A program made the position numbers and the translations under genes. A DNA stretch of 30,230 nt, from positions 1 to 30,230 of the forward strand of contig JBDRFG010000090.1 of assembly GCA_043819135.1 (NCBI GenBank), in the 5' to 3' direction. Under the pieces are notes generated by a model. That model worked only from the letters and a program-made list of their open reading frames with translations, ran no database searches and was not told where the DNA came from. The stretch comes from Candidatus Eiseniibacteriota bacterium. GTDB taxonomy: Bacteria; Joyebacterota; Joyebacteria; Joyebacterales; Joyebacteraceae. The first letter of the stretch is position 1. Each line of letters opens with the position of its first letter. Shown here piece by piece: positions 513 through 26,148 of the stretch.

Positions 513-698
513 ATGGAGTATCTGATCAGCGCACAGGACGAGAGCGACAGGCGGTACCAAGGCCTGCTCGACGTCTCGAACGCATCATGGCCGGACCCCG
601 AAAGGGCCGTTCTGGCAATCAGAGGAAGAAGCAAGAGTGTGAACGTGATACGCGTTCTCAACATCAAGATCAAGTTCGAGACCCAGCCTGCCCGCTAG
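513..698 (+). CDS. 61-aa GNAT-derived microprotein (N-terminus plus C-terminus of the downstream double-GNAT family)
   Basis: Residues 1-28 align without gaps to the start of 6412..7410 (13/28 identical, including SD..Y....DVSNA.WP). The C-terminal VLNIKIKFETQPAR matches GLNMQLGFEAQPAW (7/14). No acetyl-CoA motif. Confidence 0.6.
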   Translation: MEYLISAQDESDRRYQGLLDVSNASWPDPERAVLAIRGRSKSVNVIRVLNIKIKFETQPAR

Positions 699-736: not shown

Positions 737-1711
737 ATGACGATACGACCGTTCAACTTCAGCGACACCGATTACCAGGCGCTAGCAGACATCTCAAACG
801 CCGTCTGGCCCGACAGGCCGAGCGTGCCGCAGGCCACCAAGGAGAACGACAAGCGGCGCGACCCGAAGTACTACTTCCAGCGCCTGGTCGTGGAGAGCGG
901 CGGCGGAGTAATCGCAAGCGCCATCTACGGCGAGTCCGACTGGACTCACGTGCCCGGGAAATTCTTCATCAGTGTGCAGGTCCACCCGGACCACCAGAGG
1001 AAGGGGACCGGGACGGCGCTCTACGACCACATCATGAAGGACCTGGCGGAGCGCGGTCCCACGATCTTCGAGTCCCATGCCCGGGAGGACAGGTCTGAGG
1101 GGATGAGCTTCCTGGAGAAGCGCGGGTACAAGAAGACTCTGCGCGACCAGGTATCAGAGCTGGCGGTCGCCGACTTCACACCGGAGCCGTTCGCCTGGAC
1201 CGCGGACCTTACGGAGAAGACCGGGGTCGAGATACGGACCGTGGCGGAGCTTACGGCCGACGGGGTCGACTGGAAGCGTGACGTGTGGGAGCTCGAGTAC
1301 GAGCTGCTACAGGACGTTCCGACCGACGACCCGGTGACGAAGCAGCCGTTCGAGCGTTGGCTGGAATGGCTGACGCACCCGGCATATCTCCCGGAGGCGT
1401 TCTTCATTGCGATCAAGGACGGCAGGTTCGTCGGGATGACGAGCCTGTGGCAGTCCCTGGCCGAGAGGGACAAGCTCCACACGGAGCTGACGGCCGTCGT
1501 GAGGAGTCTGCGCCGGAAGGGGATAGCGACCGCGCTCAAGGTGCGCGCTATCGAGTTCGCGCGCGACCGCGGAGCCCGCGTTATCAGGACGGACAACGAG
1601 GAGAACAACCCGATGTACGACCTCAACGTCCGTCTCGGCTTCAGGCCCGTGCCGGCCTGGTGGACCTACAGGAAGGAACTCAATAATCCAAACGGAGACA
1701 CACGACCATGA
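737..1711 (+). CDS. Tandem (double-domain) GNAT N-acetyltransferase, paralog 1
   Basis: Start reassigned to ATG 737 (MTIRPF) by homology with paralogs. Motif A occurs twice: VHPDHQRKGTG and RRKGIA. C-terminal TDNEENNPMYDLN.RLGF. Confidence 0.92.
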   Translation: MTIRPFNFSDTDYQALADISNAVWPDRPSVPQATKENDKRRDPKYYFQRLVVESGGGVIASAIYGESDWTHVPGKFFISVQVHPDHQRKGTGTALYDHIMKDLAERGPTIFESHAREDRSEGMSFLEKRGYKKTLRDQVSELAVADFTPEPFAWTADLTEKTGVEIRTVAELTADGVDWKRDVWELEYELLQDVPTDDPVTKQPFERWLEWLTHPAYLPEAFFIAIKDGRFVGMTSLWQSLAERDKLHTELTAVVRSLRRKGIATALKVRAIEFARDRGARVIRTDNEENNPMYDLNVRLGFRPVPAWWTYRKELNNPNGDTRP

Positions 1712-2706
1712 TGACGATACGAAAGTTCAAGAAGATCGACGGCGACTACCGGGCAGTGCTCGACATATTGAATGCGCTGTGGCCGGACGAGAGGCAAGGA
1801 CTCTCCGAACTCAAGTACGAGGATGAAGCCCGCGACCCGAAGTACACGCATGAGCGGTACGTGGGGGAGGTGGACGGGAAGATCGTGGCGTCAGGCGTCT
1901 ACGCGCACTGCAACTGGAGCCACGTCCCGGGCAAGTACCTCGTGTCCGTCGATGTGCATCCTGACTACCAGAGACAGGGGCACGGTGGTCAGTTCTTCGA
2001 CTTCCTGATGGACGATCTCGGCAAGCGGGATGCCGACACGCTCGTCACCTGGACGCGCGATGACAAGCCCGACTATGCCAGCTTCATTACGAAGCGCGGG
2101 TTCGAATTCTCGATGCGCTACGCCGTGTCGCGGCTGGACGTCGAGGCGCTCGACCTGTCGGAGTTCGAATGGACGCCGGGCAAGATGAAGGAGCTCGGCG
2201 TGGAGATCCAGTGTCTGACGGAACTGGCCGAGATCGATCCGGAATGGAAGCGCGCATGGTACGACATCGCGTGGGAGCTCTTCCAGGATGTGCCGTCGGT
2301 CGACGAGGTCACGCGGCCCACGTTCGAGAACTGGTGCAAGCGATTCGAGAGCCCGGGCTACCGGATGAACCTTCACTGGTTCGCTCGTGACGGCGACCAG
2401 CTCGTGGGCTACACGGGCCTCTGGTTGTCCGAGGCCGACCCGGCGAAGATCTACACCGGTCTGACGGGTGTCGTGAGGAGCCACAGGCGGAAGGGAATCG
2501 CCACGGCGCTCAAGGTCCACGGGTTCTCACGCGCCAGGGAACTCGGCAAGAAGAGCATCGAGACGGACAACGAGGAGAAGAACCCGATGTTCGATCTCAA
2601 CATGCGGCTGGGCTTCAAGCCCGCTCCCGCGTGGACCGAGTACCGGCGCCCTTTCGCTGACGTGCCGGCCGAAAGCCAGGCCGTCGAGGCATCGGAGGGC
2701 GCATAG
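1708..2706 (+). CDS. Tandem GNAT N-acetyltransferase, paralog 2
   Basis: ATGA overlap with paralog 1. VHPDYQRQGHG and RRKGIATALK; TDNEEKNPMFDLN. Confidence 0.93.
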   Translation: MMTIRKFKKIDGDYRAVLDILNALWPDERQGLSELKYEDEARDPKYTHERYVGEVDGKIVASGVYAHCNWSHVPGKYLVSVDVHPDYQRQGHGGQFFDFLMDDLGKRDADTLVTWTRDDKPDYASFITKRGFEFSMRYAVSRLDVEALDLSEFEWTPGKMKELGVEIQCLTELAEIDPEWKRAWYDIAWELFQDVPSVDEVTRPTFENWCKRFESPGYRMNLHWFARDGDQLVGYTGLWLSEADPAKIYTGLTGVVRSHRRKGIATALKVHGFSRARELGKKSIETDNEEKNPMFDLNMRLGFKPAPAWTEYRRPFADVPAESQAVEASEGA

Positions 2707-2716
2707 AGGGAATACG

Positions 2717-3334
2717 ATGAAGCTGACGATGAGAGCGTACGAAGCGTCCGACTTCTGGAAGATTCGCGCGTTCCTGCGCGAGACCTTCCTCCTGAACGGT
2801 CGAGAGGAGACGAACTGGCAGGCGTACAGGTTCGAGTACTGGGTGTGGCACGGCGTCGCGAACCTCGACCAGGGTCCCTTGGAGGAGAAGGTCTTCCTCT
2901 GGGAGACGCCGGACGGCGCACTCGCCACGGTGCTCAACGCCGAGGGTAAGGGCGACAACAGGGCGGACGTCACCTGGTACCGTAGCATCCAGAAGGCGCC
3001 GCTCTACCGCCGCGACCTTGACATCGTCGCGGTCGCGCCTGACGGAGCGGTTGCATCGTTCTGCACTATCTGGTTCGATGACATCACGCTGACCGCCGCC
3101 TGCGAGCCCGTGGCCACGTCGCCCGCCCACCAGAGGAAGGGCCTCGCAAGGGCCTGCATCCACGAGGGTCTCAGGCGCGCGAAGGAGATGGGCGCGACCC
3201 TCGGGTTCGTCGGTTCGGGCGAAGAGGGTGCCCACCGGTGCTACGCTTCGGCGGGTTTCAAGGACTACAGTATCTCGAGGCAATGGGTCAAGGAGGTCCA
3301 GGATGCGCCAGGGGTTCGCAATCAGGCCGTTTGA
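2717..3334 (+). CDS. GNAT N-acetyltransferase of a different family, probably internally deleted
   Basis: SD GAGGG. One motif A (PVATSPAHQRKGLA) and a C-terminal YASAGF. Lacks TDNEENNPM. 3' end overlaps the next gene by 32 nt. Confidence 0.85.
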   Translation: MKLTMRAYEASDFWKIRAFLRETFLLNGREETNWQAYRFEYWVWHGVANLDQGPLEEKVFLWETPDGALATVLNAEGKGDNRADVTWYRSIQKAPLYRRDLDIVAVAPDGAVASFCTIWFDDITLTAACEPVATSPAHQRKGLARACIHEGLRRAKEMGATLGFVGSGEEGAHRCYASAGFKDYSISRQWVKEVQDAPGVRNQAV

Positions 3335-4280
3335 TGGTTCCGACGAGGACTACGAGGCCATCGTGGATGTCTGGAACGCCGCCTTTCCGGACGAGATCAC
3401 GAACGCGGAGACGCGGCGCCATCACGACGAGCACCTCCAGACGCAGTTCCTCTTCGAGCGGCTCATCGGCGAGATAGATGGGACGCCCGTCCTCAACGCG
3501 TACTACGGCGAGGACGAGTGGAGCCACTTCCCGGGCAAGTACAGGCTGGGCATTCAGGTCGTTCCAGAGTACCGCCGCATGGGGTTTGGGCGTGCCACGT
3601 ACGACTACATCTGGGACCGGATCAAGGACCGCAACCCGAAGCCGAAGGCTCTTGCAACCTACGCGCGCGAGGACGATCCCGACAGCATGCGTTTCGTCGA
3701 GAAGCGCGGGTTCAAGGTGGTGCAGCGCAACCAGTTCTCGAAGCTGGACGTGCGGTCGTTTGATCCGTCGCCCTTCGAAGGAACGCTCAAGCGTGTCGAT
3801 GAGTCCGAGGTGGACGTCCGCTCGTTCGGAGATCTGATGGCCGAGGATCCCGACGCGTTAAGAAAGGCCTACGAGGCCGGCTGGGAGTTTCTTCAGGATG
3901 TGCCGTTCCCGGACCCCATCCAGAAGATGCCTTTCGAGCAGTACATGGCCGAAGTAGAGGGGCCGTGGGGAATGCCGAAGTCGTGGTTCATCGCCGTCGA
4001 CCAGGGCCGTTACGTCGGGATGTCGCAGCTCTGGCTCATCCCGGCACAGCCGAGGCGCCTTCAGACCGGACTCACAGGCGTCTCGCGGACACACAGGCGC
4101 AGAGGTATCGCCACCGCGCTCAAGGTGCGGACGATATCGGGCGCCAGGGAGTCGGGCTTCGTGTCGATACGGACGGACAACGAGGAGAACAACCCGATGT
4201 ACTTCCTCAACGTCAAGCTGGGCTTCAAGCCGATACCTTCCTGGCTCGCGTACAAGAACGAGCTCAAGAAGAGGGACTGA
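3303..4280 (+). CDS. Tandem GNAT N-acetyltransferase, paralog 3
   Basis: SD AAGGAGG before ATG 3303 (MRQGFAIRPF). VVPEYRRMGFG and RRRGIATALK; TDNEENNPM. Confidence 0.92.
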   Translation: MRQGFAIRPFDGSDEDYEAIVDVWNAAFPDEITNAETRRHHDEHLQTQFLFERLIGEIDGTPVLNAYYGEDEWSHFPGKYRLGIQVVPEYRRMGFGRATYDYIWDRIKDRNPKPKALATYAREDDPDSMRFVEKRGFKVVQRNQFSKLDVRSFDPSPFEGTLKRVDESEVDVRSFGDLMAEDPDALRKAYEAGWEFLQDVPFPDPIQKMPFEQYMAEVEGPWGMPKSWFIAVDQGRYVGMSQLWLIPAQPRRLQTGLTGVSRTHRRRGIATALKVRTISGARESGFVSIRTDNEENNPMYFLNVKLGFKPIPSWLAYKNELKKRD

Positions 4281-4321
4281 CACCGACCCGCGGTTGGCGG
4301 GCGCCCCGCATCGGAGGATCG

Positions 4322-5359
4322 ATGAGCGCCACGAGAGGCCCGAAGGGGCTCACGATACGACCGTTCGACGGCAGCGACGCCGACTACGAGGCCACGGCCG
4401 CCATATGGACGGCCAACTGGCCGGACGAACCGAGTTCTCAGGAGGGCACGCGCTACGCCGACGCGACCCGCGAGAAGAAGTACTTCTTTCAGCGCTGGAT
4501 GGTAGAACTCGACGGAGAGATCGTGGCGACCGCCATTGCCAGCGAGCCGGAGTGGTGCTACGGGCCGGGGAAGTACGACATCCAGGTCCGCGTGCTGCCC
4601 GAGTTCCAGAAACGGGGTATCGGCGGAACGCTCTACGCTTACGTGATGGACCGCCTGAACGAACTGGAGCACAAGCCCGCCAACCTGCACGCCGACGCGC
4701 GTGAGGACCAGCCGCACTCCGTCAAGTTCCTGACGGACCGTGGGTTCGAGCAGAAGCAGCGGCAGCAGGTCTCGAGGCTGGACGTCGCCTCCTTCGACGC
4801 AGCGCCGTTCGCGGGGAGCATCAAGCGTTTCGAGGAGTCCGGCCTGACGATGAAGACTCTCGAGGAACTCGAGGCGGAGGACCCGGAGGGGAGACGCAAG
4901 GCATACGAGAAGTATGTGGAGCTATTCCAGGACGTGCCCATCTTCGAGGACCGCATCGAGATCTCATACGAGATGTTCGAGAGGGAGCTGGGGGCACCGA
5001 ACCGAATCCCGGGCGCGATTACCCTCGTGTTCGACGGTGATGAGATAGTCGGGACGACGAGTCTCTGGAAGCGTCTCGCCGACCCCGGGAACCTGGGCAC
5101 CGGTCTCACGGCGGTCGCGCGCAGTCACAGGCGCAGGGGCATCGCCACTGCGCTCAAGGTAGGAGCCATCGAGTTTGCGCGGAGCCTCGGCACGAGAGTC
5201 ATACAGACAGACAATGAGGAGAACAACCCGATGTACGACCTGAACGTGCGGCTCGGGTTCAGGCCGGTCCCGGCGTGGCTCATCTTCCAGAAGCTGCAGG
5301 GCGAGATGGCCGAAGCGGCCGGCTCGGATGCCGGTGTCGCCGCAGAGGAGACCAGTTGA
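4322..5359 (+). CDS. Tandem GNAT N-acetyltransferase, paralog 4
   Basis: SD GGAGG before ATG 4322. VLPEFQKRGIG and RRRGIATALK; TDNEENNPM. Confidence 0.92.
   Translation: MSATRGPKGLTIRPFDGSDADYEATAAIWTANWPDEPSSQEGTRYADATREKKYFFQRWMVELDGEIVATAIASEPEWCYGPGKYDIQVRVLPEFQKRGIGGTLYAYVMDRLNELEHKPANLHADAREDQPHSVKFLTDRGFEQKQRQQVSRLDVASFDAAPFAGSIKRFEESGLTMKTLEELEAEDPEGRRKAYEKYVELFQDVPIFEDRIEISYEMFERELGAPNRIPGAITLVFDGDEIVGTTSLWKRLADPGNLGTGLTAVARSHRRRGIATALKVGAIEFARSLGTRVIQTDNEENNPMYDLNVRLGFRPVPAWLIFQKLQGEMAEAAGSDAGVAAEETS
4375..4425 (+). repeat. 51-nt direct repeat, copy A (copy B at 5388-5438)
   Basis: 49/51 identical to 5388-5438. A second pair, 5216-5266 vs 6223-6273, is 50/51 identical. Confidence 0.9.
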
Positions 5360-6363
5360 AGCTGCGCATACGACCGATGAGCGAGTCCGACGCCGACTAC
5401 GCGGCCACGGCCGACATATGGACGGCCAACTGGCCGGAGTACCCGAAGACGGCGGAGATGTACCGCTACTCCGCCGAGACGCGCGACCCAATGAGCATCC
5501 TGGGACGACTCGTCGCGGAGGACGGCGACGGCATCGTGGCGACCGGGTACTTCCGCGAGGAGTCCGACAACGTGGCAGAGGGCAAATTCCTATTGTACAC
5601 GCAGGTTCATCCCGACCACCACGGCGTGGGCATCGGCGGCGCGCTCTTCGACGACCTGCTCGAGCACCTCGAGGTGCACTCTCCTAAGATCCTCTCGTCG
5701 TTCACGCGCGAGGACCACGAGGCCGGCGTCGCATTTCTCGAGAAGCGCGGGTTCCGTGTCGCCATGAAGGAACAGGATTCGGAGCTGGACCTCTCGACGT
5801 TCGACCCCGCGAAGTTCGTGGGTGTCGTCGAGAAGGTCCGCGAGTCGGGCATCGAGATTCTGCCGGCCTCCGAGCTTGCGAAGCGCGACCCGGGCTGGAT
5901 GACGAGGGCGTGGGAGCTCCACGGCGAGATCATCCCGGACGTGCCGGATGACGACGTGCTTACGAACGTGCCGTACGAGCAGTTCGATAAGAGTTTCAAG
6001 CACCCGGACTTCATTCCGGAAGGCTACTTCCTCGCGCTGGACGGTGACCGCTACGTCGGCATGAGCAGCGTCTGGAACAGGCGCGTCAAGAAGGGCGAGG
6101 TCTACACGCGGCTCACCGGCGTCGTCAGGAGCCACCGAAGACGCGGCATCGCGACCGCCCTCAAGATCCGCGCCCAGGAGTTCGCCAAGTCGATGGGCGC
6201 GCGTGTGGTCGTGACCGACAACGAGGAGAACAACCCGATGTACGACCTGAACGTGCAGCTCGGGTTCAGGCCGACGAAGGCCTGGCTCCAGTTCAGGAAG
6301 GAACTTGGTGCGACAAGGGACTCCGGCGCGACAGGAGGTCCCGGCCCGACCACTGACGAATAG
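5356..6363 (+). CDS. Tandem GNAT N-acetyltransferase, paralog 5
   Basis: SD GAGGAG at 5345-5350. TTG start overlaps the upstream TGA (TTGA). VHPDHHGVGIG and RRRGIATALK; TDNEENNPM. Confidence 0.92.
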   Translation: MKLRIRPMSESDADYAATADIWTANWPEYPKTAEMYRYSAETRDPMSILGRLVAEDGDGIVATGYFREESDNVAEGKFLLYTQVHPDHHGVGIGGALFDDLLEHLEVHSPKILSSFTREDHEAGVAFLEKRGFRVAMKEQDSELDLSTFDPAKFVGVVEKVRESGIEILPASELAKRDPGWMTRAWELHGEIIPDVPDDDVLTNVPYEQFDKSFKHPDFIPEGYFLALDGDRYVGMSSVWNRRVKKGEVYTRLTGVVRSHRRRGIATALKIRAQEFAKSMGARVVVTDNEENNPMYDLNVQLGFRPTKAWLQFRKELGATRDSGATGGPGPTTDE

Positions 6364-6411
6364 CACACACACGTCGCGCGTAGTTAAGGCGTGGCGTCGG
6401 AGGACAGCACA

Positions 6412-7410
6412 GTGACATTCAAGATACGACCATTCGACAAGTCCGACGAGGACTACCGGGCGGCGGTCGACGTGTCAAACGCCAACTGGCCGGAAGAGCT
6501 TGCCGCGCCGGAGAGCTGGCAACACCGAGACAAGCACCGCGACGAGAAGTACCTGTTCGGGCGCGTTGTGGGGGAGGTGGACGGCAAGGTAGCCGCATAC
6601 TCGAGCTACGGCGAGAGCTCCTGGGCCCACGTCGCCGGCAAGTATTTCATCCACATCGAGGTGCACCCGGACCACCAGCGGAACGGTTACGGTGCGGCCA
6701 TCTACGATCACGTCACGGGACTCCTGGCTGAGCGCGACCCGCTCTTTTTCACTGCCGACACTCGCGAGGACAAGCCGGACTTCATCCGCTTCCTGACGAA
6801 GCACGGATTCGAGCAGACCATGCGCTATCCGGTGTCGCACCTGAACCCTCAGACCTTCGACTTCTCGAAGTTCGACGGCGTCGAGGGGCGCGTGAAGGAG
6901 CATGGCATCGAGATAGTCAACGTGCCCGACCTGCCCGCGCGCGACCCCGACTGGAAGCGGAACTGGTACGAGCTCGAGCAAGAGTGCTGGATGGACGTGC
7001 CGCTTCCCGAGCCGCCGACCAGGGGCAGCTACGAGGAATTCGAGTCGCGCTTCGATTCACCCAACTACGACGCGAGGGCGCACTTCATCGCCATCGACGG
7101 CGACCGCTACGTGGGAATGACCGGTTTCTGGACGTCGCCGGTCGAGAAGCACAAACTCTATACCGGACTGACCGGCGTGATCAGAAGCCACAGGCGGAAA
7201 GGCATTGCCACCGCACTCAAGGTCAGCGGCGCCAGGTACGCGCGCGACTACGGGGCGACCATCGTCGAGACCGACAATGAGGAGAACAACCCGATGTTCG
7301 GCCTCAACATGCAGCTGGGGTTCGAGGCGCAGCCCGCGTGGATCGACTTCCGGAAGGTGCTGAGGGAGCCGCGCGAGGGCGAGACGATCCCGGAGGTCAA
7401 GGAGCGTTAA
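6412..7410 (+). CDS. Tandem GNAT N-acetyltransferase, paralog 6
   Basis: SD GGAGGA at 6399-6404 and GTG 6412 (MTFKIRPF); alternative start 6391. VHPDHQRNGYG and RRKGIATALK; TDNEENNPM. Confidence 0.92.
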   Translation: MTFKIRPFDKSDEDYRAAVDVSNANWPEELAAPESWQHRDKHRDEKYLFGRVVGEVDGKVAAYSSYGESSWAHVAGKYFIHIEVHPDHQRNGYGAAIYDHVTGLLAERDPLFFTADTREDKPDFIRFLTKHGFEQTMRYPVSHLNPQTFDFSKFDGVEGRVKEHGIEIVNVPDLPARDPDWKRNWYELEQECWMDVPLPEPPTRGSYEEFESRFDSPNYDARAHFIAIDGDRYVGMTGFWTSPVEKHKLYTGLTGVIRSHRRKGIATALKVSGARYARDYGATIVETDNEENNPMFGLNMQLGFEAQPAWIDFRKVLREPREGETIPEVKER

Positions 7411-8762: not shown

Positions 8763-8781
8763 CTGCGTGAAGGGGGGAGAG

Positions 8782-10161
8782 ATGAGACGGAGTGACAGGA
8801 TGATGTCGTTGAAGCGGCGTCTGGGGCTCGCGGTGCTCCTGACGCTGTTTGTTCTTCTGGCGACGACGCAGTGCTTCGCACAGACGCGCGTGGTCGTCGG
8901 CCAGGACGAGTCGAAGCCAGCAAGTGCCGAGTTCAAGGCGGCCGCGGTAGACTCCATCAGCTGGGCGCTCAACAAGACGTATGTCTTCGAGGACGTCGCC
9001 AGGGACATGGAGAAGCTCCTGCGCCGCAAGCTCAAGAACGGCGACTACGACGAGTTCGCGACCATCCAGGACTTTGCGCGTCAACTGACCGATGACATGC
9101 AGGAAGTCAGCGGCGACCGGCACCTCGGCGTGCGCTTCATGAGCGACGAGGCCGTTGCGGAGGCCGCGGCCGGCGACGAGGACCCTGAGGTCGCCCATAA
9201 GATGGCCTTCGAGCGCGGCAGTAAGCAGAACTTCCAGTTCAAGGAACTCGAGATCCTCGACGGCAACGTAGGCTATCTCAAGCTCAACGGCTTCAACGAC
9301 ACGTCGCTCTCGGGCCCGACCGCCGTGGCCGCGATGAACTTCCTCGCGCACACCGACGCCCTCATCATCGATCTGACGGAGAACGGCGGCGGCAGCCCTT
9401 CCCTCATACAGACCCTCATGGGCTACCTTCTGGACGACTCGACGCACCTGAACAGCTTCTACATCCGCGACGGCGATTCCCTGCGGCAGTTCTGGTCGGC
9501 GCCCTACGTGCCCGGCCCGAAGATGGTGGACACGGAGCTGTACGTTCTCACGAGCAGCCACACGTTCTCCGCGGCCGAGGAGTTCACCTACAACGTGAAG
9601 AACCTGAAGCGCGGGACGGTAGTCGGTGAGACAACCGGCGGAGGCGCGCATCCCGTCACGTCATACGTCATCGACGACATGAACCTGCTGGTCCGCGTGT
9701 CGTTCGGGCGCGCCATCAACCCCATCTCCGGCACGAACTGGGAAGGGACCGGCGTAGCGCCCGACATCGAGGTTCCGGCCGACCAGGCGTTCGACGTCGC
9801 CTACCTCGACGCCTTGAGCACGCTACGCGAGCGGGACATGAGCGACGAAGAGGCATTCCCGCTCGACTGGGCCATAGCGGGGCTCGACTCGAAGCTGAAC
9901 CTGGTTGAGGTGGACGCAGCGACTCTCGAATCCTATGCTGGTGACTACGGTCCCCGTCATCTCCGAGTAAAGGACGGCAATCTGTTCTACAACCGCGACG
10001 AGCGTGACCCGATCGTCGCGACGCCGATGACCGAGGCCATGTTCAGTTTCGACGCGGTGCCGTACTTCCGACTGGAGGTCGTGCTGGGTGACGACGGAGC
10101 GCCCGTCAAGATAGTCAGGCACTACGACAACGGCCACACGGACGAGAACCCGAGGGACTGA
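8782..10161 (+). CDS. Secreted S41 family peptidase (IRBP/CtpA-like)
   Basis: Signal peptide; GNVGYLKL, IIDLTENGGG, TFSAAEEF (catalytic Ser region), GETTGGGAHP, WEGTGVAPD. ATG 8782 follows a G-rich SD. Confidence 0.9.
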   Translation: MRRSDRMMSLKRRLGLAVLLTLFVLLATTQCFAQTRVVVGQDESKPASAEFKAAAVDSISWALNKTYVFEDVARDMEKLLRRKLKNGDYDEFATIQDFARQLTDDMQEVSGDRHLGVRFMSDEAVAEAAAGDEDPEVAHKMAFERGSKQNFQFKELEILDGNVGYLKLNGFNDTSLSGPTAVAAMNFLAHTDALIIDLTENGGGSPSLIQTLMGYLLDDSTHLNSFYIRDGDSLRQFWSAPYVPGPKMVDTELYVLTSSHTFSAAEEFTYNVKNLKRGTVVGETTGGGAHPVTSYVIDDMNLLVRVSFGRAINPISGTNWEGTGVAPDIEVPADQAFDVAYLDALSTLRERDMSDEEAFPLDWAIAGLDSKLNLVEVDAATLESYAGDYGPRHLRVKDGNLFYNRDERDPIVATPMTEAMFSFDAVPYFRLEVVLGDDGAPVKIVRHYDNGHTDENPRD

Positions 10162-10227: not shown

Positions 10228-13200
10228 ATGTTGGAGAGGCGACCGAGCGTTCCAATCGCAATTGGGATCGCACTTGTTCTGTTCGCATCGGCGGCGACGG
10301 CAGCGACGCCGCACGCCGGAATGCTGCGCTACCCGGACGTCAGCGAGACACACATCGTGTTCCGCTACGCCAACGATATCTGGACCGTGCCGAAGGAGGG
10401 TGGAGTGGCGGCGCCGCTCGCGAGCCCCGTGGGCAACGAGTCGCTCCCCAGATTCAGCCCCGACGGCGAGACCATCGCCTTCATGGCGAACTACGACGGC
10501 AACTACGACATCTACACCATTCCGGCGGAGGGCGGCACGCCGTACCGCGTGACGCACCATCCGAACTCCGAGCGGCCTGTCGACTGGACGCCGGACGGCG
10601 AGATCATCTTCTGGGCGTTCGGCATGAGCGACCACGCGCAGACGGTCCAGCTATACACCGTCCCGCCCGAGGGGGGGCCTCCCGAGCAGCTCCCGGTGCC
10701 CTACGGCTGGAACGCGTCCATCAGCGACGACGGGAAGTGGCTCGCCTACAACCCGTTCTCCAGCGACTACTCCACGTGGAAGCGCTACCGCGGGGGACGC
10801 GCGGCCGACATATGGCTCTTCAACCTGCGCGACCACTCGTCGAAGAAGATCACCGACTGGGAGGGCGCCGACACGTTCCCGATGTGGCACGGCGACAGCC
10901 TCTACTACGTATCCGACGCGGGTCCCGCGCACCGGCTGAACGTCTGGGTCTACGACACCAAGACCGAGCACAGCCGCCAGATCACGAAGCACCGCGACTA
11001 CGACGTCAAGTGGGCGTCCATCGGCCCCGACGCGATCGTCTACCAGTACGGTGCTGAGCTCCGCCTGCTCGACCTCGAGAGCGAGCGCTCGACCAAGGTG
11101 GACGTGAGAGTACCCGGTGACCACACCAAGGTGCGGCCGCAGCTCTTCGACGAAGCGGACCAGACTCATGGGGGCGGCATATCTGCGACCGGCAAACGCG
11201 CGGTCGTCAATGCGCGAGGTGACATCTGGACCATTCCGGCCGAGAACGGGATGCCCAGGGGCGTAACTCGCACCGACGATTCCATCGAGCGGAACCCGAC
11301 GTGGAGTCCGGACGGGAAATGGATCGCCTACACATCCGACGAGTCGGGCGAGTACGAGATCTACATCGCGCAGTCCGACGGCCGGGGCGAGACGAAGAAG
11401 CTCACCAACCGCAAGGGGAGCTACATCGAGGAGCTCACGTGGTCTCCCGACTCGGAGAAGCTGGCGTTCTTCGACAGCAGCGGCACTCTATACATACTCG
11501 AGGTCGAGTCGAAGGACGTCAAGAAGGTCTACAAGCGGGCGACCGGCGGCCGCGGTGTCAGCGTCAGCTGGTCGCACGACTCGAACTGGCTGACCTTCGC
11601 CGACCGCCCGACGATGCGGGAGGCCTGCTCCGCCGTCTTCCTGTACATCCTCGACGAGGACAAGCTCACGCAGGTGACCAGCACCATGTTCAACGACACC
11701 TGGCCGACCTTCGACCGCGCCGGCGACTTCCTCTACTACGCCAGTATGCAGGACTACACTTCATTCACCTCCGGCGACAATTTCGACACGTGGGTCTACG
11801 ACCAGACCGACCGCCTGTTGGCCGTACCGCTCCGCGAGGACGTCGAGTGGCCTCTCGTCCCCGAGAGCGACGAGGAGGAGTGGGACGACGAGGACGCCGA
11901 GGACGAGGACGGCGATGACGAGGGAGACGAAGAAGGCGAAGAGGGTGATGAGGACGCCAAGGACGACGCCGACGAGGACGGAGACGGCGACGCCGAGGAT
12001 GAAGACGGCGACGAGGACGCCGACGACGAAGACGAAGAGCCACTCGTCATCGATCTCGAGGGCTTCGAGCAGCGGGCTGTGCTCCTGCCCGTCGAGCGGG
12101 GCGGCTTCTACAATCTGGCCGTGAACCACGAGGGCAAGCTGCTCTGCCTGCGCCGCTCGGACGACGAGGCGGGCACGCTCCAGCTCGTCGACATCACGGA
12201 CGACGAGGAGATGGAGAAGACGGTGCTCACGGGCGTCGCGGGCTTCGACCTCTCTGGTGACGGCGAGAAGGTGCTCGCCGCGAACGAGTCGGGAGCACTC
12301 GCCATAGTCGATGCGGCGGCCGACCAGAGCTGGGACGAGATGCTCTCGACGGCCGGGATGGTGGTCGAAATAGACCCGAAGGTCGAGTGGATGGCGACGC
12401 TGCGCGACGCCTGGCGAATCATGCGCGACTTCTTCTACGACCCCGGCATGCACGGTGTGGACTGGGAGGGCGTGAGGAAGCAGTACGAGCCGATGGTCGA
12501 GGGCTGCGCGTCGCGGTCCGATCTCTCGTTCGTGATAGGCGAGATGATCGCCGAGCTCAACGTCGGACACGCCTACTACATGGGCGGCGAGAGCGATGAC
12601 ACGCCGGCCAGCGTCTCCGTCGGCATGCTCGGATGCGACTTCGAGCTCGACCACGGTGCGTACAAGGTGTCGAAGATCTACCAGGGCGGGCCGTGGGACT
12701 CGGACGCGAGGGGGCCCCTGAGCCAGCCGGGCATCGACGTCAGCGAGGGCGACTATATCCTCGAGGTGAACGGGGTGCCGGTCGACGCGGACAAGGACCC
12801 GTGGGCCGCCTTCCAGGGCCTCGCCGGCATGGAAGTGACGCTGACGGTCAACGAGGAGTCCTCGATCACCGACAGCGTGCGTCACGTGGTCGTCGAGCCC
12901 GTCGGGTCCGAAGGAGACCTCCGCTACCGCGCGTGGGTCGAGAAGAACCGCGCCTACGTCGAGGAGAAGTCCGGGGGCAGGGTCGGGTACATCTACGTCC
13001 CGGACACAGCCGCGGACGGACGCAACAACATCGCACGCCAGTTCGGGGGGCAGATGCACATGGATGCCCTCATCATCGACGAGCGCTGGAACGGCGGCGG
13101 CTGGTCGCCCGAGCGCTTCGTTGAGCTGTTCGACCGCCACCACGGCAGCTACTGGGCCGTGCGCGAAGTAGACGAGGGCGAGCCGGAGCCAGGGGTGGGG

Positions 13201-13608
13201 CACTATGGCCCCAAGTGCATGCTGATCAACGAGTCTGCAGGGTCCGGCGGTGACTCGTTCCCGTTCTGGTTCAGGGAGAGGGGAGTGGGCCCGCTCATCG
13301 GTACGCGGACCTGGGGCGGTCTGGTCGGACTGTCCGGCAACCCGCCTCTGGCGGATGGCGGTTACATGAGCGTGCCGCGCTTCGCGTTCTACAACAAGGA
13401 CGGGACGTGGGGCGTCGAGGGACACGGTGTCGACCCGGACATCGAGGTGGTCGACGACCCGGCCCTCATGGTTGACGGGGGAGACCCCCAGCTCGACAAG
13501 GCCATCGAGGTCATGCTGGACGAGATAGAGAAGAACCCGTTCGTTCGGGTGCCGAAGCCCGAGTACCCGAACCGCAGCGGGATGGGGATACGTCCCGAGG
13601 ACAAGTAG
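10228..13608 (+). CDS. Secreted tricorn-like protease (S41B) with beta-propeller (PD40-like) repeats and PDZ domain
   Basis: Signal peptide; repeated FSPDG/WSPDG; ELNVGHAY (His), IIDERWNGGG, AGSGGD (Ser), GTRTWGG, VEGHGVDPDIEV. Confidence 0.95.
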   Translation: MLERRPSVPIAIGIALVLFASAATAATPHAGMLRYPDVSETHIVFRYANDIWTVPKEGGVAAPLASPVGNESLPRFSPDGETIAFMANYDGNYDIYTIPAEGGTPYRVTHHPNSERPVDWTPDGEIIFWAFGMSDHAQTVQLYTVPPEGGPPEQLPVPYGWNASISDDGKWLAYNPFSSDYSTWKRYRGGRAADIWLFNLRDHSSKKITDWEGADTFPMWHGDSLYYVSDAGPAHRLNVWVYDTKTEHSRQITKHRDYDVKWASIGPDAIVYQYGAELRLLDLESERSTKVDVRVPGDHTKVRPQLFDEADQTHGGGISATGKRAVVNARGDIWTIPAENGMPRGVTRTDDSIERNPTWSPDGKWIAYTSDESGEYEIYIAQSDGRGETKKLTNRKGSYIEELTWSPDSEKLAFFDSSGTLYILEVESKDVKKVYKRATGGRGVSVSWSHDSNWLTFADRPTMREACSAVFLYILDEDKLTQVTSTMFNDTWPTFDRAGDFLYYASMQDYTSFTSGDNFDTWVYDQTDRLLAVPLREDVEWPLVPESDEEEWDDEDAEDEDGDDEGDEEGEEGDEDAKDDADEDGDGDAEDEDGDEDADDEDEEPLVIDLEGFEQRAVLLPVERGGFYNLAVNHEGKLLCLRRSDDEAGTLQLVDITDDEEMEKTVLTGVAGFDLSGDGEKVLAANESGALAIVDAAADQSWDEMLSTAGMVVEIDPKVEWMATLRDAWRIMRDFFYDPGMHGVDWEGVRKQYEPMVEGCASRSDLSFVIGEMIAELNVGHAYYMGGESDDTPASVSVGMLGCDFELDHGAYKVSKIYQGGPWDSDARGPLSQPGIDVSEGDYILEVNGVPVDADKDPWAAFQGLAGMEVTLTVNEESSITDSVRHVVVEPVGSEGDLRYRAWVEKNRAYVEEKSGGRVGYIYVPDTAADGRNNIARQFGGQMHMDALIIDERWNGGGWSPERFVELFDRHHGSYWAVREVDEGEPEPGVGHYGPKCMLINESAGSGGDSFPFWFRERGVGPLIGTRTWGGLVGLSGNPPLADGGYMSVPRFAFYNKDGTWGVEGHGVDPDIEVVDDPALMVDGGDPQLDKAIEVMLDEIEKNPFVRVPKPEYPNRSGMGIRPEDK
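11863..12039 (+). repeat. Low-complexity Asp/Glu tract inside the tricorn protease
   Basis: 59 codons, 44 of them D or E, with a single basic residue. Confidence 0.9.
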
Positions 13609-13719: not shown

Positions 13720-16212
13720 CTACCTCACCAGCACGAGCTTACCCGTCGCCGCTTCGCCGCCCGCCGTGACTCGCACGAAGTAGACGCCCGACGCCACGTC
13801 GTCCCCGTTGGCGTTCTTCCCGTCCCAGGCCCTCTCGTTCCTGCCCGCCGCGCACCTTTGCGCCGGCAGCCTCTTCACGAGACGTCCCGCCACGTTGTAG
13901 ACAGTCACGGTAGCGCTGCCATCCTCCGGCAGCATGAACGCTATCGTGGTCTCGCTGCGGAAGGGGTTCGGCCACGCCGGGTTCAGTCTCAGCTTGGCCA
14001 CGGGTTCTTCGATGTCCGGTGGGACGAGGTCGTAGGCCGATATCTCGACGTCGTCGATGTTCCAGCCGCAGTAGTGGGCCGTCAGATCCGTTTCGCCCAT
14101 GGTCCAGCGAACGCAGACCGCCTCTTCGCCGTCCGCGATGTCCGACACGTCGAGTTCGACCAGGGTCCACTCGTCGTCCGTCACCTCGTCCTCGTGGGTC
14201 CACACTGTCGTCCAGTTCTCGCCGTCCGCGCTCACGCTGACCAGGGCTTTGTCGTAGCGCTCCACCTCGACACCCAGCCAACGCCAGAAGCTCAGCTGCG
14301 TCAGCACGAACCCGGAGCAGTCGATCGGCCCCGTCGTCAGGTGCTCCTCGGACATCCCGTCGGGGTAGTCGCCGCTCAGGTTGTATCCGTAGACGAAGTC
14401 GCCCGTGTGCCCGCTCGTCGGGTCCGGTCCTCCGTTCTGTCCGCCCCCGCCGGTGGGCTGGCCGAACGCCCACAGCCCCTCGTGGGTCCAGCCGGGGTCC
14501 TCGTCGAACATCCACTGGTAACGGGATACCCGTCCTCCGACCGCGAGAGTGACCTCCCGGAACACGTCGCCCAGGTACTCAGATCCGGTCTCGAAGACCA
14601 CGCGGGCCCGGTGCACGCCTGGCCCGAGCTCGGCGGCGGCATTGTTCACCGTCACCGTGACCGTCACCGGGACGTCCACCTGGAGCGTGCCGTGCGCGTC
14701 TCCCACTATCGTGAGCCAGCTGACCGGCGGGTCGACGCTGACGTTGTACGCTACATCCTCCGCACCGTGGTACACGAACTCGTAGCGCGTGCTGTCGGGG
14801 GAGAAGGGGCCGCCGACCGGTCCCAGTGAATGGATGCCCTCGGTCGGGTCGAGCAGCAGGGAGAGGCCGTCCGTCAGGGCCTTGATGCAGAAGTTGGCGT
14901 CGGGGTCGTAGTCGGTCAAGTCGAGCCACGAGCCGCCGTCCCTGTAGTAGCTCTCCCCTGGGCCGGCGGACGAGTGGACGATGGCGCGATAGCTGGCGCC
15001 CAGGAGCACGTTGACCTCGCTGGTCGTGTCGTACGGCTGCCCGCCGCGTGAGAGCATCAAAGAGACCGCGAAGCGCTCGCCCGCGGAGAACGCGACCGGT
15101 GTCGCGAGGTCCACCGTGTGGAGTCCCTTGCGCTCGAACGTCCCTGTTACGGAGGCCAGTTCGTTGGGCAGCGCGGTTCCGGCGAACGCCGGGTGGATTC
15201 CCACCGTGTAGTCTACTGAGTCGGCGGCTGTGTAGAAGCTCACCGCGCGCACCATCTCATCTCCGGTCATGGTGAACACGTTGACCGCCTCGTACGCGCC
15301 CTCCAACGTGTCGCGCCAGCCGTGGTAGTCGTGATAGTAGACGTGCTCGTAGCCCATGAGTTCCACGTTCCGGAACGAGACGGCGCCCATCTGGGGCTCC
15401 TTGCACGCGTACTTGTCGTAGTACGAGATCCAGAAGTAGCCCTGGCTTCCCCAGTCGTCGCCCCAGCTGTTCTTGACGAGCCACGCGCCGACGTGCGGGG
15501 CGTGACTGGGCTTGCTGTCGTCCCATCCGACTATCGACACGGCGTGGTTGGGTTCGAGTGAAGACCCGGGCGGCTGGTAGTGCACGCCGTCCTCGAGGAA
15601 CATCTCGTCGGAGTGGAGACAGGTTGCGACGATACCGTGGTCGATCACGGACTGCTTGACGACGTCTATGGCCGACAGGTCCTCGCGCGCCGTCAGCCAC
15701 ACGATGTCGCGCGGGTAGTAGACGTGGTAGCTGGAAGAGGTTCTGCCGGGAGGGAAGTTGTACTCCTGGCCGTCGGAGTTCCGGACGGAGCCGTCGCCGC
15801 GCGACGTGTAGGCCGAGGTCATCAGGTAGTCGCCGCCGGCGTGGACATCCACGCCGTCCGACGGGTTGTTGGGATTGTTCTCGTCCTCGTTGAACTCCGT
15901 GTTGAACCCGTTCCACCAGTCGAGATGATACTCGGCCAGGTCGGGTTCCCCGTCCTCGCCGTTCGCCTCCCAGGAGCCAGACATAAGGAGATTGCTCTCC
16001 ATGGCCGCCATGGCCGCGTGCGTCCAGCACGTGCCCCCGCTCTGCTCCTTGACGCTGGTGACGTAATCCTCGCCGCCGACGTTCCGGAGGTCGAACGAAC
16101 TGGGGAGCTGGGCAGAGGCGGTTCCGGCGCAGAGCGAGACCGCGACCGCGAACGTCGCCGCAGTCAGTGCCGCCCGTGTGCGCGGGCTGAGCGTGTTGAG
16201 CCTGTGTCTCAT
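13720..16212 (-). CDS. Secreted C1A (papain-like) cysteine protease with lectin-like and Ig/BACON-like modules and a C-terminal FlgD-Ig/T9SS-like domain
   Basis: Start ATG 16212 (SD GAGGA); signal peptide ending ASA-Q; LPSSFDLR, QSGGTCW (Cys), NHAVSIVGW (His), KNSWG (Asn); C-terminal PNPF...YNVAGRLV...WDG...SGVYFVR. Confidence 0.92.
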   Translation of the reverse strand: MRHRLNTLSPRTRAALTAATFAVAVSLCAGTASAQLPSSFDLRNVGGEDYVTSVKEQSGGTCWTHAAMAAMESNLLMSGSWEANGEDGEPDLAEYHLDWWNGFNTEFNEDENNPNNPSDGVDVHAGGDYLMTSAYTSRGDGSVRNSDGQEYNFPPGRTSSSYHVYYPRDIVWLTAREDLSAIDVVKQSVIDHGIVATCLHSDEMFLEDGVHYQPPGSSLEPNHAVSIVGWDDSKPSHAPHVGAWLVKNSWGDDWGSQGYFWISYYDKYACKEPQMGAVSFRNVELMGYEHVYYHDYHGWRDTLEGAYEAVNVFTMTGDEMVRAVSFYTAADSVDYTVGIHPAFAGTALPNELASVTGTFERKGLHTVDLATPVAFSAGERFAVSLMLSRGGQPYDTTSEVNVLLGASYRAIVHSSAGPGESYYRDGGSWLDLTDYDPDANFCIKALTDGLSLLLDPTEGIHSLGPVGGPFSPDSTRYEFVYHGAEDVAYNVSVDPPVSWLTIVGDAHGTLQVDVPVTVTVTVNNAAAELGPGVHRARVVFETGSEYLGDVFREVTLAVGGRVSRYQWMFDEDPGWTHEGLWAFGQPTGGGGQNGGPDPTSGHTGDFVYGYNLSGDYPDGMSEEHLTTGPIDCSGFVLTQLSFWRWLGVEVERYDKALVSVSADGENWTTVWTHEDEVTDDEWTLVELDVSDIADGEEAVCVRWTMGETDLTAHYCGWNIDDVEISAYDLVPPDIEEPVAKLRLNPAWPNPFRSETTIAFMLPEDGSATVTVYNVAGRLVKRLPAQRCAAGRNERAWDGKNANGDDVASGVYFVRVTAGGEAATGKLVLVR

Positions 16213-16526
16213 CTGGAGTCCTCGCGTCGATGCATGAGGTACGTGTGTCGGTAATCGCTGTCTTGGATTCGGCCCCGCGAGAACTGCTGACGGGACCGCC
16301 AGGAGGGTGCCTCTGTGTGTGAGTCCGGTTACCGACAATCTACCACACCCGCGACGTTCCGGCAAGTCGGCCGAAGGCGCGCTCGGCGGGCCGACACGCG
16401 CAGCGCGCGGCCGCACGCGGCATGTGGACGACCCGTCCCTCCGTCTTCCTGAATGTGCTACTCTCTCTGACACGAGAGCTGCGGGAAGGTGTAACCGCGG
16501 CAGGATGCACCGGGGAGGTCAATGGC

Positions 16527-24846: not shown

Positions 24847-26148
24847 ATGGGGACGACCACGTCGCGCGGAGCGGTCATGCTGATCGCGCTTGTCACGCTG
24901 GCGTTGCCCACTACGGCAAGCTGTGGTTGCTGTAAGCCGGCGCCCGCGGGGAAGACCGGGGGCACGAAGAATGAGGTCGTGGTCGAGGTGACTGACGAGG
25001 ACGTCGAGGCGCTGGTCGACGGCGGCAACAACTTCGCGTTCGACCTCTATGCCAGGCTGGCAGGAGACGGCAATCTCTTCTTCTCGCCCTACAGCATCTC
25101 AACGGCGCTCGCCATGACGGCGGCGGGTGCGCGCGGCAACACCGAGCACGAGATGGCGACCACCCTGTGCTTCCCGAACGCCAAGGACAAGCCATCGCCC
25201 GCCGGCCGCGAACGCATCGCTGCCTCGTTCGCGTCCCTACAGGACGGCCTGACCGCTTCACCCGAGACGCGCGGCTACGAACTCAACATCGCCAACAGCC
25301 TCTGGGGACAGGAGAGTTACCCGTTCAGGGAATCCTACATCAAGCTCGTGGCGACCTATTTCGGGGGCGGATTCAACCCCGCGGACTTCCAGCAGAACGC
25401 GGAGGCCGAGCGAGTCAGAATCAACAAGTGGGTGGAGGGGGAGACGCGCGAGAAGATCAAGGATCTCATCCCCCCGGGCGGCGTGGACCCCGCTACCACG
25501 CTCGTGCTGACGAACGCCGTCTACTTCAAGGGCCAGTGGCTGTCCAGGTTCGATGAAGAGAGAACCAGCGATGCCACCTTCCACGGGACTCGCGGGGATG
25601 CGACCGTCCCGATGATGTACCAGAAGGGAAACTTCCAGTACTTAGAGAACGAGGACGTTCAGGTGCTCGAGATGCCCTACCGCGGGGAGGAGATCTCGAT
25701 GCTGGTCGTCCTGCCCAGGCCCGAGAGCCTCGTCAACCTCAGGGTCATCGAGAGTCGCCTGACGGCGCAGGTGCTATCCGGCTGGTTGGGACAGATCAGG
25801 GAGAAGGAGCTCAAGGTCTACTTCCCGAGGTTCGAGATGACCTGGGGCACCGAGGACATCTCCGGCTACCTGGCCGCCCTCGGGATACACGATGCGTTCA
25901 GTTCCAGTGCGGACTTCTCCGGCATGTCCGACCTCAAGGACCTCTTCATCGCCTCGGTCTTTCACAAGGCCTTCGTCGCCGTCAACGAGGAGGGCACGGA
26001 GGCCGCGGCGGCGACGGCCGTCGTGATGCGTCTGACGATCGAGCAGCACGAGACGGTGTTCAGGGCCGACCACCCGTTCCTGTTCGTCATACGCGACGAC
26101 GCCACGGGCAGCATCCTGTTCATGGGACGCGTCGCGGACCTCGGGTAG
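24847..26148 (+). CDS. Serpin (serine protease inhibitor), exported, possible lipoprotein
   Basis: SD AAGGAGG; FFSPYSISTALAM, NAVYFKGQW, hinge EEGTEAAAAT, FRADHPFLF, ILFMGRV. Cys-rich end of the signal region (ASCGCC). Confidence 0.96.
   Translation: MGTTTSRGAVMLIALVTLALPTTASCGCCKPAPAGKTGGTKNEVVVEVTDEDVEALVDGGNNFAFDLYARLAGDGNLFFSPYSISTALAMTAAGARGNTEHEMATTLCFPNAKDKPSPAGRERIAASFASLQDGLTASPETRGYELNIANSLWGQESYPFRESYIKLVATYFGGGFNPADFQQNAEAERVRINKWVEGETREKIKDLIPPGGVDPATTLVLTNAVYFKGQWLSRFDEERTSDATFHGTRGDATVPMMYQKGNFQYLENEDVQVLEMPYRGEEISMLVVLPRPESLVNLRVIESRLTAQVLSGWLGQIREKELKVYFPRFEMTWGTEDISGYLAALGIHDAFSSSADFSGMSDLKDLFIASVFHKAFVAVNEEGTEAAAATAVVMRLTIEQHETVFRADHPFLFVIRDDATGSILFMGRVADLG

Follow-up and report, generated by a model that had tools for sequence, protein, structure and literature searches.

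In bacteria, shortened copies of larger proteins are known from the H-NS family, whose truncated members are paralogs that antagonize the full-length protein and retain a known oligomerization domain. The leader peptides and upstream ORFs of bacterial operons are short ORFs that lie directly upstream of the genes they control. In eukaryotes, microProteins are small single-domain proteins derived from larger relatives, which they modulate by binding, according to a published account (PMC9638782). The origins of bacterial small proteins and of lineage-restricted genes are mostly unknown. At the locus described here, the parent family adjoins the small gene, and the birth event appears to be readable as one internal deletion.

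The window, that is, the whole stretch of 30,230 nucleotides analysed, is an entire contig of a metagenome-assembled genome (MAG) of a Candidatus Eiseniibacteriota bacterium, whose assembly comprises 174 contigs with 92% completeness and 1.5% contamination; all genomes compared with it are likewise MAGs. On its plus strand, at 513-698, lies a 61-codon gene for a small protein, recognized by its ORF call, by its orthologs, and by purifying selection confined to its own frame. Judging from sequence comparison, it is very probably a real coding gene derived from a GNAT, the acetyltransferase family encoded immediately downstream. In the literature on Eisenbacteria acetyltransferases and on small proteins from deleted paralogs, as far as its text is available, nothing on this peptide family was found.

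The small gene and its product

The small ORF starts with ATG at 513 and stops with TAG at 696-698, exactly where a preliminary description, made from the letters of the window alone, had placed a 61-aa ORF. Its product of 61 amino acids has a mass of 7.0 kDa and a pI of 9.4, the N-terminal half being acidic (pI 4.05) and the C-terminal half basic (pI 12.0). A purine-rich stretch at 496-504 on the plus strand, read from the sequence, ends 8 nt before the ATG and may act as a Shine-Dalgarno site; the block from this stretch into the small ORF is nearly invariant across 9 sequences. Past the stop codon, 18 nt at 699-716 on the plus strand are invariant in six genomes of the genus and, read in frame, resemble the tail of a GNAT (..RKE..). 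The contig end lies 512 nt from the start of the small ORF.

The 61-aa peptide matches no family in Pfam at E up to 0.1 and none in NCBIfam, and its best score in the ESM Atlas, 0.86, falls below the useful range. Modelled alone, it forms three helices with low confidence (pLDDT 49.7), a result that would fit folding on a partner. Contigs of relatives from run X20 cover 543-802; this run is metatranscriptomic by guess only, and the coverage is not counted as transcription. Read-through or fusion of the small ORF with the following gene, G1, is ruled out, as in-frame stops come after the TAG; the frame of G1 is continuous with the upstream sequence in this genome only, through a 1-nt difference in the spacer.

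The downstream GNAT array

The array at 737-7410 comprises six tandem GNATs and one single GNAT, arranged head to tail on one strand, the plus strand, with starts and stops that are tightly packed or overlapping. G1 (737-1711), assigned by Pfam and 324 amino acids long, begins 38 nt downstream of the small ORF, and G2 (1708-2706) overlaps it in an ATGA at 1708-1711. The single-domain GNAT (2717-3334) comes next, followed by the tandem GNATs G3 (3303-4280), G4 (about 4322-5359), G5 (about 5356-6363), and G6 (6391-7410). The six tandem-GNAT paralogs are 44-48% identical and each contain two Acetyltransf_1 stretches in Pfam; the names of array relatives, 'mycothiol synthase' or 'GNAT family', come from automatic annotation only. 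The AF2 model of G1 (pLDDT 94.6) has its nearest solved folds in MAB_4324 (7q3a), a Sphaerobacter GNAT (3tt2), and the clavulanic-acid tandem GNAT (2wpw), with the glucosamine N-acetyltransferase of C. acetobutylicum (5kf1) and the mycothiol synthase MshD (1ozp) as further near folds.

The association with the small ORF is constant: in 9/9 loci with downstream sequence, the next gene is a G1-type GNAT, 38 to about 75 nt away. In one genome of the genus, G004, the G1 ortholog (L007, G004:C104, about 1728-2757) is broken up into two ORFs, 73 and 264 codons long, and the GNAT after it has the look of a fused or shortened gene; the broken G1 may reflect real decay or an error of MAG assembly.

Further along the window, a tricorn-type protease homolog of 1126 aa at 10228-13608 (PD40 repeats, Tricorn C1 and PDZ, Peptidase_S41) contains a long insert, about 70 residues, that is acidic and rich in D/E. 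At 24847-26148, the window encodes a full-length bacterial serpin (Pfam Serpin, E 1.5e-115) whose neighbourhood is rich in proteases: 8767-10161 codes for a Peptidase_S41 protein, and 13720-16473 for a papain-family protease carrying a Por secretion tail.

Distribution and conservation

A peptide search of 41 genomes finds the small ORF full-length and stop-free in the same genus only, where it is present in five of the seven other species, all of them Candidatus Eisenbacteria MAGs. The peptide is 92% identical in G003, 89% in G001, and 82% in both G005 and G006. In G004, which has lost 10 codons in frame, identity is 90% in the genome search and 75% over all 61 positions by tblastn. A DNA search of 8 genomes of the genus agrees with the peptide search and finds that G002 keeps the two flanks only; there the ORF continues for about 19 homologous codons before it enters the spacer. 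In G007 (95% complete), the small ORF was not found by DNA or profile search. With codons 19-61 gone in G002 and no match in G007, the small gene is apparently dispensable in some lineages.

Among all 31 genomes of the order, which consists of one family with 8 genera, a profile search likewise returns the full ORF in this genus only, and every other match is the N-terminus of a long GNAT ORF. A full-length GNAT or frameshifted remnants at this locus in relatives had been proposed as signs of a merely decaying copy; the relatives carry neither, the one caveat being a truncated remnant in G002.

Beyond these genomes, the small ORF occurs on 4 metagenome contigs, in one of which it is cut by the contig end. 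A set of 5.8 billion proteins yields 38 cluster representatives, 37 besides this one, with identities of 69-93%; 33/38 are exactly 61 aa long, the others measuring 59, 59, 59, 57, and 51 aa; such protein sets contain intact called ORFs only, and the uniformity of length is partly ascertainment. The unbiased sample is the genus, with 5 species that have the ORF, 1 with a truncated form, and 1 in which it was not found. The alignment of representatives contains 21 invariant columns, clustered at residues 9-24 and 45-61. An exhaustive profile search of 1.84 billion representatives gives 5 matches at E up to 0.001. Three of these are 61-aa proteins, two of them 56% and 49% identical to this peptide, and the 61-aa length together with 16 invariant residues is kept even at about 50% identity. 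The other two matches are long proteins: in P0162, a protein of 2552 aa, three stretches match peptide residues 1-31; P0163, a repetitive 905-aa protein, was taken as spurious.

Descent from tandem GNATs

The segment at 519-596 on the plus strand, encoding peptide residues 3-28, is homologous to the tandem-GNAT N-terminus, which comprises strand beta1 and helix alpha1. The N-terminus of the peptide matches G1 at 67% over 18 aa and G6 at 36% over 45 aa (tblastn, E 4e-7). When the peptide-family profile is compared by hhalign with a profile of 75 GNATs, peptide residues 2-44 fall on the very start of the GNATs with 95% probability and E 3.4e-8. P0160, a divergent member of the peptide family, aligns with a full-length GNAT of another genus Met1 on Met1, at 43% over 37 aa (BLASTP, E 1e-10). 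By these three measures, the N-terminal alignment to the downstream GNATs that the preliminary description had drawn lies well above chance. The GNAT aligned with P0160 is a 403-aa tandem GNAT (L045, G022:C29, 436-1647, minus strand), whose first 37 residues are the best outgroup match to the peptide family and whose C-terminal tail contains a threefold repeat of about 13 residues.

The remainder of the peptide, residues 30-61 encoded at 600-695 on the plus strand, weakly resembles the C-terminus of the GNATs (beta5, the TDNEENNPM loop, alpha4, and the start of beta6 in domain 2), with a gapless match of 32% over 38 aa at E 0.009. By hhalign, peptide residues 34-61 align with G1 281-308 at P 0.0085. 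The corresponding claim of a C-terminal alignment is suggestive only by these values, though it is gapless and colinear through the stop: peptide 30-61 pairs with G1 277-308, the alignment ends where the GNATs end, and the similarity runs past the stop codon into the spacer. Read from the alignments, this part of the peptide matches five invariant or near-invariant GNAT positions (G1 N291, L296, N297, P306, and A307), and the family-invariant G301 and W308 are replaced.

Because the C-terminal likeness is gapless and runs through the stop, one deletion of about 250 residues (G1 27-276) would suffice to explain the small ORF, and a second is unneeded. Two deletions amounting to about 270 residues had been proposed; a single loss of about 250 codons is enough, although a route through two deletions could have led to the same product. 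Similarly, the TDNEENNPM signature had been thought deleted, and on the C-terminal alignment this stretch has instead been overwritten. The junction of the deletion can be placed no more exactly than peptide residues 28-34.

Motif A for acetyl-CoA binding has the form R/Q-x-x-G-x-G/A. Nothing in the 61 residues corresponds to the two motif A stretches of G1 (about residues 86-95 and 259-267), in agreement with the earlier statement that all catalytic motifs are lacking. Judged by its sequence, the peptide cannot be an acetyltransferase, and with no match to a GNAT profile it is best regarded as a descendant of the GNAT family, not a member of it. What the peptide retains belongs, in the G1 model, to the core of the fold: beta1/alpha1 of domain 1 (E2-5, H10-23) and beta5-alpha4 of domain 2 (E282-286, H294-300), ahead of a strand at E303-314. 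The preliminary description had suggested that a C-terminal strand packing onto the N-terminal domain could make the peptide a dominant-negative or assembly partner, a mechanism that must be regarded as hypothetical.

Two other resemblances were considered and set aside. Translated on the minus strand, 544-591 looks like GNAT motif A (E 4e-4 to 0.06, six paralogs); as these bases show far stronger homology on the plus strand, the likeness was judged a compositional chance of arginine-rich antisense frames. Derivation of the N-terminal half from the 'LYTGLTGV' region of domain 2 gives P 0.015-0.024, much weaker than the N-terminal match.

Selection on the reading frame

Pairwise substitution rates were estimated by the Nei-Gojobori method among the six orthologs of the genus. 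For the small ORF, dN is 0.02-0.08 and dS 0.03-0.23, with omega of 0.11-0.64 in 14/15 pairs (mostly 0.26-0.46) and of 1.74 in one pair that has only 7 differences. G1, compared in five of the same genomes, with G004 left out for its broken copy, gives dN of 0.08-0.16, dS of 0.32-0.55, and omega of 0.24-0.30. Nucleotide differences amount to 4-18 per 153-183 nt in the small ORF versus 111-174 per about 900-970 nt in G1.

Changes were also counted on a tree of 10 sequences drawn from six genomes and four contigs, from which G002 was left out as truncated and in which G004 is without 10 codons and one contig without the first 13. Parsimony assigns 35 synonymous (S) and 39 nonsynonymous (N) changes, against an expectation of 75% N (binomial p 2.4e-5), corresponding to an omega of about 0.37. 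Averaging over multi-hit paths gives an N fraction of 0.55 versus a simulated mean of 0.75 (sd 0.05), and 0/1000 neutral simulations, which place the observed number of changes at random (n=1000), reach a value as low. The preliminary description had named dN/dS as a check between a working microprotein and a decayed paralog, for which it should be about 1; the observed value favours the working microprotein, and, given the same 61-codon ORF in relatives, decay is rejected.

Since 107/1000 neutral simulations stay stop-free, an open frame alone is weak evidence. The other five frames carry no coding signature, each having an N excess or p of 0.027 or more, with stop-creating changes; frame +2, though free of stops in all 9 sequences, counts S 12 and N 62. 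The coding signature is carried by the fast-evolving middle of the small ORF, codons 24-47 (582-653, plus strand), with S 27, N 20, an omega of about 0.25, a binomial p of 3e-6, and 0/1000 neutral simulations as low. Translation is thus implied by the middle third, as far as substitution patterns can tell. Codons 1-23 (S 5, N 11, omega about 0.68) and codons 48-61 (S 3, N 8, omega about 0.95) are not significant, and both ends pooled give S 8, N 19, and an omega of about 0.8. The conservation at these two ends could be at the level of nucleotides and not of protein.

Frozen synonymous sites at both ends

Per codon, changes are about 2.6-fold rarer at the two ends of the small ORF than in its middle. 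Two blocks of nucleotides are nearly invariant, one that begins about 25 nt upstream of the ATG and extends through codon 23, and one that spans codon 48 to 18 nt past the stop; in window coordinates, synonymous sites are almost invariant across 9-10 sequences at 495-585 and 640-716. Among codons whose amino acid is invariant, synonymous variation is seen in 3/24 at the ORF ends versus 83/148 in G1 of the same 7 genomes (Fisher p 1e-4, with the split between ends and middle chosen after seeing the data).

Several possible sources of this constraint were searched for. Rfam has no match at the small ORF. RNAalifold predicts 71 pairs, nearly all invariant, of which 2 show compensatory change, both upstream of the ORF, and its covariation term is +0.33. 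Fold z-scores of -1.36, -0.74, -0.63, and +0.09 indicate ordinary folding energies, and a duplex between the 5' and 3' ends is no better than shuffles (241/300 as good). No sigma-70 promoter-like or terminator-like site occurs in 1-1000, and none of the other five frames offers a second coding frame that would explain the frozen ends. The ORF ends seem to carry some further nucleotide-level constraint, for which no RNA structure, promoter, or second frame accounts.

The upstream ORF and its deletion

In relatives, a 122-codon ORF lies directly upstream, and its TGA overlaps the start of the small ORF by 13 nt. Since the small ORF's start overlaps this stop, translational coupling of the small ORF to the upstream ORF is likely in these relatives. 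In the product, a hydrophobic N-terminal half precedes a basic tail; read by eye, the hydrophobic half looks like two putative transmembrane stretches, and neither Pfam nor NCBIfam has a family for it. The upstream ORF is matched in 7/31 genomes of the family, all in genus g1, five times in full length and partially in G002 and in the genome of the window (G000).

In the window, a remnant of the 3' third of the upstream ORF occupies 376-525 on the plus strand, where 376-522 matches residues 74-122 of the relatives' protein and TGA stands at 523-525. Alignment with relatives locates at 373/374 the joint of a deletion of about 232 bp that is specific to this genome and has cost the upstream ORF its ribosome site, its start, and about 73 codons; the missing sequence, which includes the hydrophobic N-terminal segments, is present in five genomes of the same genus. 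Among contigs from four runs, no independent contig bridges the joint, and loose ends at 370 and 377 come from other organisms, in which the stretch is undeleted. In G002, which by G1 sequence is nearest to this genome, the upstream ORF carries another deletion, and that one is in frame. With distinct deletions in these two genomes, the upstream ORF would seem to be in decay within this sub-lineage, and this genome has lost what was probably the source of coupled translation.

Competing explanations

Slightly favoured over doubt is the reading of the small ORF as a selectively maintained small-protein gene born from the collapse of a GNAT, with a product that would be a non-catalytic partner of GNATs and with ends that would also hold a nucleotide-level signal. 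According to the mechanism proposed, one tandem-GNAT copy would have lost its middle, about 250 codons, by a single in-frame deletion, and its opening ~28 residues (beta1/alpha1) would have been fused to its closing ~32 (beta5-alpha4 of domain 2). The product would be a translated peptide of 7.0 kDa, acidic in its N-terminal half, basic in its C-terminal half, and devoid of catalysis. It may act on or with the neighbouring tandem GNATs in the manner of a microProtein, and both ORF ends may additionally hold a nucleotide-level signal that serves expression of the small gene or of G1. Taken by itself, a role of the peptide as non-catalytic partner or modulator of its parental tandem GNATs is a doubtful proposition, which we infer from family and position. 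A more far-reaching version, that of a bacterial microProtein in which a collapsed GNAT core has been exapted, putatively binds and tunes the six downstream GNATs, and carries at its ends a non-coding layer controlling expression of the array, must be called unlikely.

The frozen ends raise the alternative of a cis-acting device, in which translation of the small ORF, coupled upstream and ending 38 nt before G1, would set expression of the array and the peptide would be secondary; the idea is compatible with a peptide function, and as the primary explanation it has a small chance of being right. The position of the small ORF and its overlap with the upstream ORF, the near-invariant nucleotides at both ends and in the flanks, the scarcity of synonymous variation at the ends relative to G1, and the low confidence with which the peptide folds all agree with such a device. 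It is opposed by the purifying selection on amino acids in codons 24-47 and by the retention of length and of 16 invariant residues at about 50% identity, and the searches for a terminator- or promoter-like site, an Rfam match, covariation, or a notable fold z-score (-1.36 to +0.09) returned nothing in its favour. The overlap of 13 nt also invites the idea that the peptide and the upstream 122-codon ORF, membrane-like by eye, form a two-gene module of their own that stands beside the GNAT array by chance. Both the upstream ORF and the full-length peptide are confined to genus g1, and G002 combines in-frame damage of the upstream ORF with a truncated peptide gene. Nevertheless, the peptide ORF of the window is intact, with only conservative private changes, even though the upstream ORF there is missing its start and about 73 codons, and both the descent of the peptide from GNATs and the G1-type GNAT that follows in 9/9 loci make the module rather improbable.

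That the small ORF is a neutral, decaying remnant of a paralog, with its frame open by chance, is what a fragment of the neighbouring family stripped of every catalytic motif would at first suggest, and truncation of the ORF in G002, the 107/1000 neutral simulations that stay stop-free, and GC-rich DNA that keeps other frames open (frame +2 in all 9 sequences) are in keeping with it. However, the small ORF diverges less than the intact G1, its N fraction of 0.55 against the expected 0.75 is matched by 0/1000 simulations, and both the 61-aa length and the in-frame nature of the indel persist over about 50% divergence, which leaves a neutral remnant very improbable.

Comparison with known systems

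If the favoured reading of a maintained gene born from a collapsed GNAT is right, the small ORF would be a clear and datable case of a bacterial small-protein gene born by the collapse of an enzyme paralog, and it would offer a handle on an uncharacterized array of six tandem-GNAT genes in an uncultured phylum. With synonymous sites frozen at either end, the small ORF would also represent a compact case of overlapping coding and non-coding constraint.

Like the leader peptides of operons, the small ORF is short, co-oriented, and located upstream of its possible targets, with conserved nucleotides around its start and stop; unlike them, its amino acids are under selection, its length is fixed at 61 codons, and no attenuator or terminator structure was found. 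Like the truncated H-NS-type paralogs, it is a shortened version of a resident family that persists as a gene of its own, whereas the part that those paralogs retain is a known oligomerization domain. Relative to the tandem GNATs themselves, the peptide is without about 250 residues, including both acetyl-CoA motifs, but its first ~28 residues are homologous to the beta1/alpha1 start and its last ~32 are colinear with the end of the family.

The eukaryotic microProteins keep a defined interaction domain whose binding has been demonstrated, whereas the peptide keeps pieces of a fold core, is known from sequence alone, and belongs to a bacterial host. In common with them, it is small, comes from a multi-domain family, lacks a functional domain, and is encoded beside its likely targets. 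It is a small relative of a 324-aa tandem GNAT, has no catalytic motif, and appears to be kept by selection at the protein level; if it acts on its parent enzymes, the idea of the microProtein, so far eukaryotic, would extend to bacteria.
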